A DNA stretch of 64,000 nucleotides from Nonlabens sp. (GTDB lineage: Bacteria > Bacteroidota > Bacteroidia > Flavobacteriales > Flavobacteriaceae). Location of the stretch: positions 706,388-770,387 of the forward strand of contig NZ_JAGYKG010000001.1 in the NCBI RefSeq assembly GCF_018401815.1, read 5' to 3'. Below the pieces are notes generated by a model that did no database searches, was not told the origin of the DNA, and worked only from the letters and a program-made list of their open reading frames with translations. The translations under genes and the position numbers were made by a program. Shown here one piece after another: positions 1,586 to 62,669 of this stretch. The number at the start of each line of letters is the position of its first letter. The first letter of the stretch is position 1.

Positions 1586-2242
1586 ATGAAGGACAGCATT
1601 CTCTCCACAAAAAGATTAACGGAACCACAAGTAGAACTCGTTCTAAATACGGGCTATAGTCTTACCCACTATGACTTGTTAAAAATTCAACCCATTGGAA
1701 TTGATTCTATTGAAAACTGGGATCAAGTTATTGTTTCAAGCCAGAATGCTATTCCAGCGTTAGTAGCCCATCGTAAATTCCTAAAAAATGTTTACTGCGT
1801 GGGTGAGGTTACCGCCTTTTATTTAAAAAAAAAAGGCATCCATCCTATACATATTGCTAATAACGCAGTAGATCTTGCAAAAACATTAATTAATAACTAT
1901 CCAGATAAAAGCTTCCTATATTTATGTAGTGAACAACGTAGAGATGAACTTCCATCGTTATTTCTTAAAGAAAATATACCTTTAAAAGAACTTTTTGTTT
2001 ACCGATCTATTGCCGTCATGAAAAGCTTTGATCGTATTTTTGCAGCGGTAATTTTCTATAGTCCTAGAGGTGTACACGCTTTCGCGAAAGCGAATCCCCA
2101 CAACCAACCTCTTAACGCAATTTGTATAGGAAAGACCACCGCTAGTACTGCTGCTTCCTACTATAACAACGTAACAATAGCAACAAAGCAAACCGTAGAA
2201 AACACACTGATAACCGCAATAAAAGCGTTACGCAATGATTAA
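1586..2242 (+). CDS. hemD: Uroporphyrinogen-III synthase
   Basis: [32 protein letters not shown] and CIGKTTA motifs; overlaps hemE. Confidence 0.85.
2078..2091. repeat. Palindrome GCTTTCGCGAAAGC in hemD (AFAKA)
   Basis: Read directly. Confidence 0.9.
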
Positions 2243-3260
2243 AAATGATCTTTTTTTAAAAGCATTAAGAGGTGAAGAAGTAGCACGTCCACCAGTATGG
2301 ATGATGAGACAGGCAGGAAGGTATTTACCGGATTTCATGAAACTCAAGTCAAAATATGACTTTTTTACCAGATGTCAGACCCCTGAACTTGCTACAGAAA
2401 TCACCGTCATGCCTATCGATCAGATAGGTCCAGATGCAGCCATACTTTTCTCTGATATTCTTGTGATACCACAAGCTATGAATATTGAGGTAGAAATGAA
2501 AAATGGAATAGGCCCCTGGTTACCTAAGCCTATTAGAACGGTTAAAGACCTGGATCGAGTAATCGTTCCCGACGTGAAAGACTCCTTAAGTTATGTGTTT
2601 GAAGCTATAGACATGACTAAAAAAGTATTGGATAACCGTGTGCCTTTAATAGGCTTTGCAGGATCTCCATGGACTATTTTGTGTTATTGTGTACAAGGAC
2701 AGGGAAGTAAAAACTTTGATAAGGCAAAAGAATTTTGTTTTACACAGCCTGAAGCAGCACATATCTTATTGCAAAAAATTACAGATACTACTATTTCTTA
2801 TCTTAAAGAAAAAGTAACTCACGGAGTGGATGCAGTTCAGGTTTTTGATTCTTGGGGTGGCATGCTTTCTCCTACTGATTATCAAGAATTCTCTTGGAAG
2901 TACCTACAGCAAATTATTGATGCCTTGAAACCGCATACGGAAGTAATCGTTTTCGGTAAAGGATGCTGGTTTGCTTTAGGGGATATGGCAAAAAGTGGCG
3001 CGAGTGCTCTAGGAGTGGACTGGACCTGTAGCGCTAGAAACGCACGTTACCTCTCGGGTGGAAATATTACACTACAAGGTAATTTTGATCCATCAAGACT
3101 GTTCTCTCCACCAGCTGAAATCAAGAAAATGGTTACTCAAATGATCAATGAATTTGGTAAAGACCGTTTTATTGCTAATCTAGGACATGGGATTTTACCT
3201 AATATCCCAGTAGAAAATGCCCAAGCATTTGTGGATGCGGTAAAGGAATACGGTCAATAA
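2235..3260 (+). CDS. hemE: Uroporphyrinogen decarboxylase
   Basis: [34 protein letters not shown] and NLGHGILP signatures. Confidence 0.97.
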
Positions 3261-3269
3261 ATTTGATTT

Positions 3270-4037
3270 ATGCTTAAAAAAATCCTGACAGGACTACTAT
3301 CTTATAGAGACAGTTTTAAACTGATCAATGAATTAAAGCTTTGGCCGTTTTTCTTTGTTCCTATGGCCATAAGTTTGCTTTTTGGGATTGCTATTTTTTT
3401 TGCAGCTTATGGACTATCAGACCATCTAGGTAGATTTTTTGCAAAAGCCTGGGTATGGGAATGGGGAAGTAAACCCTTTACATCTATAGCTACCTGGCTA
3501 GGTGCTCTTGTCATTCTAATTTTAGGTTTTATTCTTTACAAACATTTGGTGATGGCTTTGAGCGCACCATTTATGTCACCAGTTTCTGAGCGTATAGAAA
3601 AATACCTCTACCCCGAACTTCACCATCCTCATACACATAGAAAAACAAGCAATACCCAGCAATTAATACGTAGTTTACGCATCAACATTAGGAACTTATT
3701 TTATGAGATAGGCATTAGTATCCCGCTCCTGATTCTTTCATTTATACCGGTGGTAAATTTTGTGACCACTCCACTCCTGTTTTTTGTACAGGCTTATTAT
3801 GCAGGTTTTGGAAATATGGATTACACCTTAGAACGACATTATGAATACAGTGATAGTGTTTCCTTTATAAAGAAGAATAAAGGCTATGCCATAGGAAACG
3901 GAATCATTTTTATGGCCCTGCTTTTCATACCTGTTGTAGGAATTATTCTTGTTTTACCAGTTGCCGTTACCGCAGCGAGTACAACCACATTAAAATTATT
4001 AAAAGAACAGCAGATACGAATGCCCCATCAGCAATAA
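3270..4037 (+). CDS. EI24/CysZ-like membrane protein
   Basis: Multiple TM segments with APFMSPVSERIE and GFGNMDYTLER motifs; lies within the hem cluster. Confidence 0.75.
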   Translation: MLKKILTGLLSYRDSFKLINELKLWPFFFVPMAISLLFGIAIFFAAYGLSDHLGRFFAKAWVWEWGSKPFTSIATWLGALVILILGFILYKHLVMALSAPFMSPVSERIEKYLYPELHHPHTHRKTSNTQQLIRSLRINIRNLFYEIGISIPLLILSFIPVVNFVTTPLLFFVQAYYAGFGNMDYTLERHYEYSDSVSFIKKNKGYAIGNGIIFMALLFIPVVGIILVLPVAVTAASTTTLKLLKEQQIRMPHQQ

Positions 4038-62000: not shown

Positions 62001-62412
62001 TTACACTTTCCAGATCATTATCGTTTCCTGAAAAGAGGTTGTCGCTTCGGTCTCCAAATGAATTAGGCCCATTGGCATTTAAGGCATTCCCTGTCGATAA
62101 AATGATTCCATCACTTAATGGAAATGAGGATCCATTATCTTGAAAATAAGCAATCCCATTTGCATTTGCTCCAACACCGGTTCGGGATTGAATATTTGTA
62201 ATAGGTGTACAGCCTCCTTCAAATAAGACCCCGTCAATAAGCTGATCTACCGTAAACGTTGTATTATCAGTAGTTATTTGTGATAACCCAGTCTGCAACT
62301 GCACAAAAGCAATAACAATAACGATATACTTATAAGTAATTTGCAATTTTGTCTGTTTAAAAATATGTCTTCGATATGGGACTTTTACAATATCCTTTTT
62401 AATTCTATGCAA
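59044..62412 (-). CDS. T9SS type B cargo (choice-of-anchor L-like N-terminus, SprB-like ~95-aa repeats)
   Basis: N-terminal GIILSTG, FASEEY and YDSAVFIEGGSF. Repeats C.D....FDL....YY....A.....NPQT.FVR.E...GC. C-terminal FTPNNDGYHDTW..IFDRYGK..WDGTYNG...SSDYW..GHFSLKR. The start is possibly TTG at 62346. Confidence 0.88.
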   Translation of the reverse strand: MHRIKKDIVKVPYRRHIFKQTKLQITYKYIVIVIAFVQLQTGLSQITTDNTTFTVDQLIDGVLFEGGCTPITNIQSRTGVGANANGIAYFQDNGSSFPLSDGIILSTGNALNANGPNSFGDRSDNLFSGNDNDLESVMAAAGSPLISTDATWISFDFVPTASFISFDYLFASEEYNGNFECQFADAFAFILTDSVTGAVTNLATLPGTNLPVQVITVRDPPITACSPVNPAFFDQYNLGNNTFGEANLGAPAATSAIEFNGQTTVLTATSVVVPNRSYNIKLVIADASDTEYDSAVFIEGGSFDISVDLGGSRIISRGNPLCYGDVYVLDASLSLLPGISASYVWSQSGTIILGETNATLDVTENGFYEVEITFSNGCIANSSVRLEFVDLPDARPPDAISCDPNGVGSFDLTIIESLLLTSLNATDYTVTFYESQVDAQNQTNAVPTTTNYQGTSNPQTLFVRVEDNLFGCEVIYPFQLIVDDVFAAPVQDIVGCDDDTDGITTVTLADFDPLVGPGYTPGTVTISYYTTQANADAGMNALGATFTNSISPETIYARVVATNDTGCFDTTSINIVVNVEPEAAQAASDLILCEDETLNSGTATFDLRVVENDLIGTQDFTDVSISYYNSQSNADNAVAAILNPEAYSNTANPQTIFVRLEENNSGCFNTANSFDIIVNDTPPAITGPLLYELCDDATGDGLTEFDLTSRSNSITGGATGVTLFYYATALDAVNRVNELSSPYTNTSNPQTLFVIVEDNTTGCVSSTTLDLEVKEAPQAVAPPSIIVCDDSNTGDLTEAFNLTVNEAAILNGQNTGVTVSYYISLSDAANGINEIGNFTSFDNTTTPQAIYVRTENSTGCVNTTSFDIIVNEVPVPQLFDLYYLCLNSTGGVLNTSDSPPVLDTGLLSNGWSFTWELDGNIINGESSATLTAVTVGRYTVTVTDPVTGCNSSQTIEVRELGPPDDFGAQVVTRFFDERQRIEAFATGPAFQYIFRLDDGAWQYNGSFDNVSPGPHTVVIQDLEGCASVEIPLNVVGYPLYFTPNNDGYHDTWNIVGLNEIAGTTIYIFDRYGKVLKQIDPAGIGWDGTYNGQPLASSDYWFQVNYQENGIIKTFGGHFSLKR

Positions 62413-62655
62413 TTAATAACACCCTCAATAGCCTAATTCATTTACCCATCACCTTGCTTAAAGCAAAAATAATACAAATTAAATATGTATAATGCCCATT
62501 CCTATAACTTTTAATTTCAATGATGGACTCTTTGTCCACTGCTTTCCGTTAATGTCTAGTATGGCTATAAGACTATTTCACAAGTGATACATATAGTGAA
62601 TACTCCATACACATATAGATGTGCTATAAGCTTTGACCAATACCATTTTGATGAA

Positions 62656-62669
62656 GCTTTCGCGAAAGC
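62656..62669. repeat. Palindrome, intergenic (porP to T9SS cargo)
   Basis: Read directly. Confidence 0.9.

Follow-up and report, generated by a model that had tools for sequence, protein, structure and literature searches.

What keeps one and the same palindrome letter-perfect in unrelated genes, in different reading frames and in the spacers between them? The question is raised by a 64-kb stretch of a Nonlabens sp. genome (hereafter the window; C1:706388-770387 of a 2.95-Mb, 30-contig assembly, genome label G000), in which the 14-bp perfect palindrome GCTTTCGCGAAAGC is present as 15 exact copies and one copy matching at 13 of 14 positions. All 16 coordinates given in an original prediction, made from the letters of the window alone, proved right, as did its guess of 35–40% GC (34–39% along the window and 37.5% genome-wide when measured) and its chance expectation of far below one copy: 100 dinucleotide shuffles of the window yielded none. 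Eight of the copies lie in unrelated open reading frames (ORFs), three are intergenic and five stand ahead of tandem paralogues. As set out below, it is close to certain that this word is a selected, clade-wide signal at the level of DNA; what the word is for can be answered more tentatively, with a tag for the recognition of self-DNA as the favoured reading.

A palindrome written into genes and spacers

In the whole genome the word occurs in 524 exact copies, or about one per 5.4 kb, against 0.004 expected from base composition. A further 62 copies have one mismatch and 36 have two, and the exact copies outnumber all 42 one-mismatch variants combined by 8:1; the positions that vary most often in these are the outer ones and the outer C of the central CGCG, with C6>T or G9>A making up 12 of the 62. 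Most copies (366 of 524) extend to the 16-mer CGCTTTCGCGAAAGCG, and the fuller consensus is the 24-bp GTTYC-GCTTTCGCGAAAGC-GRAAC, which is set in a footprint of ~75 bp with a mirror-image base bias. Neither half-sites alone nor gapped forms of the word are enriched in this genome, which makes the whole palindrome the unit. For ~30 nt on each side, the flanks are A/T-rich, with the outward 5'->3' strand being A-rich and G-poor around intergenic and coding copies alike (G 11–13% versus 19% genome-wide) and gaining both A and C; on either strand, the 5' flank is rich in T and G and poor in C. A long hairpin or cruciform was considered and rejected, since the flanks of single copies are not individually complementary and the hairpin of the 16-mer is weak (-4.3 kcal/mol).

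The copies are spaced more evenly than at random (coefficient of variation, CV, 0.67), with only 8 gaps shorter than 1 kb where 87 are expected and 44 longer than 10 kb where 81 are expected. On a crude ORF map, namely a greedy longest-ORF set covering ~86% of the genome, 66% of the copies fall inside ORFs, and their density is ~3-fold higher between ORFs. The coding copies are distributed over the three reading frames as 202, 77 and 67, the favoured frame being the one that reads AFAKA, and many of them are found 5–25 residues from the N-terminus in signal peptides, e.g., as FAFAKAQ.

That selection acts on the DNA and not on the peptide, as the original prediction had it, is upheld by three lines of evidence. 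First, the ORF set contains AFAKA 215 times where 1.0 is expected, and the exact word encodes 202 of these; its reversed control AKAFA occurs once; the peptides FRES and LSRK are likewise over-represented 13-fold and 7-fold, respectively. Second, shuffling synonymous codons within each gene, with the proteins kept, leaves 4.0 copies (maximum 7) in place of the 348 observed in the ORFs, so that the observed frequency stands far above the shuffled level. Third, at residues conserved relative to genome G001, third-codon positions are identical in 34 of 35 cases inside the word and in 59% of cases outside it. Genome G005, related at 86% DNA identity over 472 kb, gives a parallel picture: the word is intact at 48 of 59 orthologous sites there and at 45 of 47 in the reverse direction (81–96%), as against 17% identity among control 14-mers. 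This extra conservation is limited to the word itself, with the flanks being kept in composition and not in sequence.

Alignments of orthologues, including those of recJ, hemD and the hydrolase gene, indicate how the coding copies come into being: all eight in the window substitute residues, with no insertions or deletions. RecJ provides a graded series, in which other genera read TFEEA, N. antarcticus and a Nonlabens metagenome-assembled genome (MAG) have the 13/14 form ACTTTCGCGAAAGC (TFAKA), and G000 and N. ulvanivorans have the full word; the recJ copy arose by substitution, without an insertion or deletion. The word has been written into genes and spacers by point substitution and then held letter-perfect by selection.

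The individual copies in the window are as follows (window positions; ORF strands in brackets):

2078..2091, exact copy inside a hemD-like ORF, 1586..2242 (+); reads AFAKA; exact and at the same position in G005, G001 and G003
8987..9000, exact copy, first of the array, 16 nt before the ATG of the tandem paralogue 9017..9619, which has no Pfam family
9771..9784, exact copy, second of the array, before ORF 9801..10403; flanks identical to those of the other array copies
10500..10513, exact copy, third of the array, before ORF 10530..11132
11227..11240, exact copy, fourth of the array, before ORF 11256..11858
11954..11967, exact copy, fifth of the array, before ORF 11984..12595
16718..16731, exact copy in a metallophosphoesterase ORF, 16146..16889 (-); reads LSRK; exact in G005 and G001; four mismatches in G003, which reads LKRK
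20860..20873, exact copy in recJ, 19287..20984 (-); reads AFAKA
26118..26131, exact copy in the spacer separating ORF 25070..26074 (-) from ORF 26143..26895 (-); kept in full in G001, with one mismatch in G005
33157..33170, exact copy in the signal-peptide region of an OmpH-like ORF, 32349..33269 (-); reads FAFAKAQ; exact in G005 and G001
37205..37218, exact copy in a DUF6089 ORF, 36571..37257 (-), within its signal peptide; reads FAFAKAQ
40347..40360, exact copy in an alpha/beta-hydrolase ORF, 39690..40451 (+); reads AFAKA
46307..46320, exact intergenic copy between ORFs 45567..46241 (+) and 46408..47661 (+)
54649..54662, 13/14 copy GCTTTCGCGAAAGT in the ORF of a 946-aa protein, 52171..55011 (+); reads AFAKV; the G005 orthologue reads AFKMTKV and lacks the word
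55587..55600, exact copy in a cyclase-family ORF, 55016..55840 (+); reads FRES
62656..62669, exact intergenic copy between ORFs 59044..62412 (-) and 62730..63839 (-)

The eight unrelated host ORFs of the original prediction stand, although its tally of six AFAKA readings takes in the imperfect AFAKV copy: AFAKA is read exactly five times, with AFAKV, LSRK and FRES being read once each. The array occupies positions 8287-12595, where six tandem paralogues of ~200 aa without a Pfam family are found, five of them with the word 16 nt before the ATG in a near-identical leader. Because these array copies share identical flanks and a near-identical leader, the word was multiplied there by gene duplication and the copies are not independent; discounting this multiplication leaves 11 independent copies in the window, the same number that had been counted without the array.

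Carriers, transferred islands and word-free DNA

The word is abundant in a narrow set of genomes. Each of the ~30 Nonlabens-clade genomes counted has 312–858 copies (e.g., 567 in N. ulvanivorans and 611 in N. antarcticus), and the other rich genomes are Dokdonia G308 with 797, a Dokdonia MAG with 828 and a third Flavobacteriaceae genus, G288, with 409. Among ~300 other Flavobacteriaceae genera scanned, only G308 and G288 are rich and the rest have 0–16 copies (0–6 in the named genomes of Aequorivita, Mesonia, Salegentibacter and others), and no copy is found in 16 other families of Flavobacteriales. In the 300-genus panel, abundance of the 10-mer core TTTCGCGAAA is likewise limited to these three genera. 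In a RecJ tree the carriers, i.e., Nonlabens, Dokdonia and G288, form one clade (support 83/89), in which G308 pairs with the Dokdonia MAG and which adjoins Salegentibacter, Mesonia and Christiangramia. The word arose once, in the common ancestor of these three genera, and with 524 genomic copies and an abundance restricted to one clade, the lineage-specific, chromosome-wide signal originally proposed is borne out.

Small clusters elsewhere (1–16 copies, with a recurring pair 933 bp apart) mark a shared TolC/CzcC-like efflux island, its gene being named by eye from sequence and neighbours, which is common to at least five non-carrier genera (L081-L085, from G358 Marinirhabdus, G141, G155, G317 and G178). 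The version in G317 (L084:1800-3600) matches the one in Nonlabens G009 (C6:11521-13321) with 100% identity along 1.8 kb, and is 94% identical to that of G014 and 90% to that of Dokdonia G308; its identity to the Nonlabens copy points to a recent transfer out of the carrier clade, and for the islands of the other four genera we infer a like transfer from the clade. Maintenance of the word in non-carrier genera was also considered, as the island copies looked conserved at 77% island identity, and was rejected in favour of transfer combined with the existence of several versions within the clade. Three further genera (G068, G101 and G139) show intermediate counts, with 14, 6 and 16 full words and 42, 27 and 26 10-mer cores, respectively; these may have received larger transferred segments or may be distant relatives of the carrier clade.

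The word is missing from lytic phages and from the accessory DNA of this genome. Its 23 small contigs (87 kb) have no copy where ~16 are expected. The largest word-free stretch, C23:292540-324576 (32 kb, 34.5% GC), is taken up by a cluster for polysaccharide synthesis whose genes lie on one strand and code for, among others, a DegT aminotransferase, a Wzx-type flippase and glycosyltransferases; it looks like acquired DNA. The cultured lytic Nonlabens siphophages P12024S and P12024L, which carry their own ERF/YqaJ recombination genes, have no copy even when two mismatches are allowed, where ~6 per phage are expected at host density (P ~0.002). That such phages replicate in these hosts without the word speaks against a general repair bias of the host that would affect all replicating DNA.

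The case for a possible self-recognition tag

The reading that we favour, while giving it somewhat less than an even chance, takes GCTTTCGCGAAAGC to be a self-recognition tag akin to the uptake sequences and HIP1, serving in uptake or recombination. In such a system, a dimeric reader with two-fold symmetry would recognise the word in duplex form; the most likely use of the word would be to give DNA of the same clade preference when DNA is taken up or recombined in the course of natural transformation, which is the way uptake sequences act in Neisseriaceae and Pasteurellaceae and HIP1 has been proposed to act in cyanobacteria. Such uptake could be performed by transformation genes of the Riemerella type, which this flavobacterium has: transformation in R. 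anatipestifer requires ComEC, DprA, ComF and RecA, together with four lineage-specific proteins, two of which, an outer-membrane CarboxypepD_reg protein and a DUF5689 surface protein, are encoded by adjacent genes, RA0C_RS04915 and RA0C_RS04920, that are both essential for the process (PMC8459023). A preference for its own DNA was seen in Riemerella columbina, where k-mers <=10 revealed no uptake sequence (PMC7965970); the genus is classed in Flavobacteriaceae in the transformation papers (PMC7965970, PMC8459023). At C27:61035-66549, a gene for a secreted EEP nuclease is divergent from a pair coding for a CarboxypepD_reg outer-membrane protein and a DUF5689 lipoprotein, which are homologues of the two Riemerella proteins. 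The signal peptide of this EEP nuclease itself contains the word (FAFAKA), and the word is at this spot in six of the seven carrier loci examined, i.e., in five Nonlabens and in Dokdonia G308 and not in G288. Small ORFs lying between two copies were also inspected as candidates for an autoregulated reader; judged by eye, they are ordinary enzymes or spurious ORFs.

A more specific version, which we hold to be somewhat less probable, would make the word the first sequence for uptake or self-recognition in Bacteroidota and, among such sequences, the first to take the form of a long perfect palindrome, with a symmetric receptor feeding the transformation machinery specific to Bacteroidota (TonB-dependent-like outer-membrane protein and DUF5689 lipoprotein), and with the dyad as the point of engagement or cutting. 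A dyad with this role would account for the mirror-image flanks and for the central insertions described below.

Several observations weigh against a tag of this kind. Carriers and non-carriers alike have the CarboxypepD_reg and DUF5689 pair (28 of 28 genomes tested), and its layout is the same in the 19 loci inspected. The EEP nuclease, CarboxypepD_reg and DUF5689 proteins show no carrier-diagnostic residue or insertion and no extra divergence, and a clade-specific change in the transformation locus was rejected on these grounds. The evidence for natural competence itself comes from Riemerella species, outside the carrier genera, and is indirect for Nonlabens and Dokdonia. The DNA uptake sequences (DUS) of Neisseriaceae and the uptake signal sequences (USS) of Pasteurellaceae are asymmetric and 9–12 nt long, and a strict perfect palindrome of 14–24 bp is at least as good a fit to a dimeric DNA-binding protein or nuclease. 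The stable positions of the word (81–96% shared with G005) would equally suit a site-specific chromosomal role. Neisseriaceae have dialects of their uptake sequence, whereas no dispersed 12–14-mer is found in 100-kb samples of eight neighbouring genera by a scan that recovers the word at once in carriers; a dialect candidate in Flavobacterium fluvii, GCTTTCGCCAAA (6 copies), was rejected, as it has no common flanks or palindromic extension. Viral DNA is not uniformly free of the word: the IMG/VR contig IMGVR_UViG_3300040781_000495 (L107, L124, L127) carries the 16-mer six times in 37 kb, among other places inside the genes for its portal and large terminase, and its structural genes are of the myovirus type (portal, terminase, protease, major head, sheath and baseplate).

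The last of these observations concerns the centre of the word. In G005, insertions of 7–45 nt interrupt 4 of the 59 orthologous words precisely at the dyad, against 3 of 884 controls; the corresponding G000 copies are at C1:406695, 498601, 544385 and 574356, with the split orthologues on contig C1 of G005. Two of the four inserts share a 14-bp palindrome, GCCTGCCGGCAGGC, of which G000 has no copy. This pattern suggests that DNA may be broken, extruded, hairpin-processed or targeted for insertion at the centre of the word; an uptake tag does not predict such insertions, and they keep a reading of the nuclease or recombination type alive.

Set against known systems, the word stands closest to the two analogues named in the original prediction, HIP1 and the uptake sequences. 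Like HIP1 of cyanobacteria (GCGATCGC; also Elhai's alternate HIPs, GC-rich octamers), it forms a perfect palindrome and is hyper-abundant, in genes as in spacers and in all frames; it is also selected at orthologous positions, non-randomly spaced and restricted to a lineage (PMC4390886, PMC5861425). Long without an assigned function, HIP1 is reported to raise transformation efficiency and has been proposed as an uptake sequence or watermark (PMC13756078), and with this link to uptake the two closest analogues are brought together. The word differs from HIP1 in its sequence, in being 14–24 bp in length rather than 8, in being ~5 times sparser, in its host being a flavobacterium of Bacteroidota and not a cyanobacterium, in its mirror-image, strand-biased flanks of ~30 nt, and in the lack of a cognate methyltransferase in the three families tested, whereas HIP1-type words co-occur with cognate, often orphan, methyltransferases. 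With the USS and DUS it shares the form of one sharp, clade-specific word in hundreds of evenly spaced copies, tolerated in coding DNA in favoured frames and flanked by AT-rich sequence, which is scarce in accessory DNA, is not found in two lytic phages and travels with transferred islands. It is distinct from them in being palindromic and longer and in the absence of dialects in neighbouring genera, and from the DUS in that no ComP or type IV pilus receptor appears to be involved, the candidate machinery being Riemerella-type and family-wide.

Whether the motif had already been reported was left open by the original prediction. In the literature searched, no published description of GCTTTCGCGAAAGC was found, and the genome paper of N. 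dokdonensis mentions no such repeat. To our knowledge, lineage-wide self-DNA words with an established function are limited to those of Neisseriaceae (DUS) and Pasteurellaceae (USS). If the favoured reading is true, the present word would be the third or fourth independent self-DNA word, in a new phylum. The signal is unusually long and exact, with 14–24 bp, ~500 copies and a ~200-fold distortion of one pentapeptide in the proteome, and a word of such specificity should make its reader easy to find by DNA pull-down. Both Nonlabens and Dokdonia can be cultivated and are model flavobacteria of the sea. The word also offers a practical marker by which horizontal transfers out of the clade can be dated and traced, as in the efflux island of five other genera, and by which resident phages may be told apart from lytic ones. 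Should it control uptake or recombination, it would bear on the species cohesion of marine Flavobacteriaceae and on their genetic tractability.

Other readings of the word

The best survivor among the alternatives to a self-recognition tag, though an unlikely one in our estimate, is that a dimeric protein of the chromosome, specific to the clade, binds at the word, be it nucleoid-associated, domain-boundary, topoisomerase or condensin-loading, with the ~500 even sites organising the chromosome. A perfect two-fold palindrome within a symmetric footprint of ~75 bp, the over-regular spacing, the great stability of positions between species and the enrichment of the whole word rather than of half-sites are all in keeping with such a protein, and the periodicity of HIP1 was read in this way by Xu et al. 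(PMC5861425). Against it, no extra ParB/Noc paralogue and no candidate reader was found, the flanks are conserved in composition only, and two thirds of the sites are in ORFs, where they alter the protein. Moreover, the sites of architectural proteins are normally degenerate, whereas here the exact form exceeds the one-mismatch forms 8:1.

Improbable, and more so than a chromosomal site, is a self tag of the Chi type, at which a helicase-nuclease such as AddAB/RecBCD, or a defence nuclease, would switch from degradation to RecA loading, with the palindrome working from either direction. Chi sites are likewise genome-wide self words that are absent from many lytic phages, and their density in E. 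coli, at ~1 per 5 kb, is close to the 1 per 5.4 kb seen here. The T/G-rich, C-poor 5' flank on both strands matches the composition preferred by RecA on the strand that a Chi-like event would preserve, although the gain of C together with A on the outward strand yields no simple pattern of RecA preference or deamination. The distribution of the word is also congenial to this possibility, in that it is absent from the lytic phages with their own ERF/YqaJ recombination genes and present on the myovirus-like contig, the transferred islands and core DNA, and the dyad insertions suggest DNA processing. Known Chi sites, however, are asymmetric, replication-oriented words of 5–8 nt and never a palindrome of 14–24 bp, whereas the present word is a long palindrome without orientation.

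Very improbable is a HIP1-type palindrome that is made or kept by methyltransferase-linked mismatch repair or another methylation-dependent process, as in Elhai's model. What speaks for it is the resemblance to HIP1, i.e., a palindrome hyper-abundant in genes and spacers and conserved between genomes (PMC4390886, PMC5861425), together with the share of C6>T or G9>A among the one-mismatch variants (12/62). The methylation-directed repair entertained in the original prediction found no counterpart in the methyltransferase families covered by the co-occurrence search (PF00145, PF01555 and PF02086, with gamma-class families falling outside it). C5 methyltransferases (PF00145) are lacking in the carriers G000, G288, G308, G343, G013 and G022; N4/N6 methyltransferases (PF01555) are sporadic, with none in G005, G013, G022 and G341; and D12 methyltransferases (PF02086) are found in 0 of 12 carriers and 9 of 16 non-carriers of a 28-genome panel. 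Outside the word, TCGCGA occurs 191 times, which is within the range of comparable hexamers, and the lytic phages of these hosts have no copy of the word. The D12-class (Dam-like) enzyme, of ~337 aa, is present in Aequorivita, Mesonia, Rasiella, Marinirhabdus, Ulvibacter and Winogradskyella and absent from all 12 carriers; this distribution may reflect a single phylogenetic event and was given no weight.

A mobile or transposase-spread repeat, whether a repetitive extragenic palindrome (REP) or bacterial interspersed mosaic element (BIME) with its REP-associated tyrosine transposase (RAYT), a miniature inverted-repeat transposable element or the target or remnant of an insertion element, is largely refuted and can be given almost no credence: hundreds of palindromic copies and the small dyad insertions in G005, two with GCCTGCCGGCAGGC, recall such repeats, and REP palindromes can take small insertions, but the coding copies replace residues in frame without insertions or deletions, no shared sequence extends past ~24 bp, the flanks are not individually complementary, the hairpin is weak, and 66% of the copies are in ORFs. 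REPs are extragenic, imperfect, 20–40 nt long and co-occur with RAYT, whereas the present word is exact, lies in ORFs for two thirds of its copies and does not co-occur with Y1 transposases (PF01797), which are sporadic, being missing from the carriers G003, G014 and G288 and present in many non-carriers. Nor is a known RNA family recognised in the 64-kb window by Rfam, which gives no match at the gathering threshold.

The likeness to ParB-family sites that the original prediction drew did not hold. Both parS (TGTTTCACGTGAAACA) and the Noc site (ATTTCCCGGGAAAT) are perfect palindromes of 14–16 bp with TTTC...GAAA arms; these arms are separated by 4 bp there and by 2 bp in the present word, and such sites are few and near the origin, as against ~500 dispersed copies here. 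A ParB/Noc site was accordingly rejected, there being a single ParB_N gene per genome in carriers and in most non-carriers, regardless of the presence of the word, and a separate canonical parS. The exception among the carriers is N. antarcticus G343, with three ParB_N hits, two of them in ORFs of ~600 aa. The canonical parS of G000 is at C1:910401, with a one-mismatch copy 1.9 kb away at C1:908508; both are situated in a 14-kb word-free gap, and the pair probably marks the origin-proximal region.

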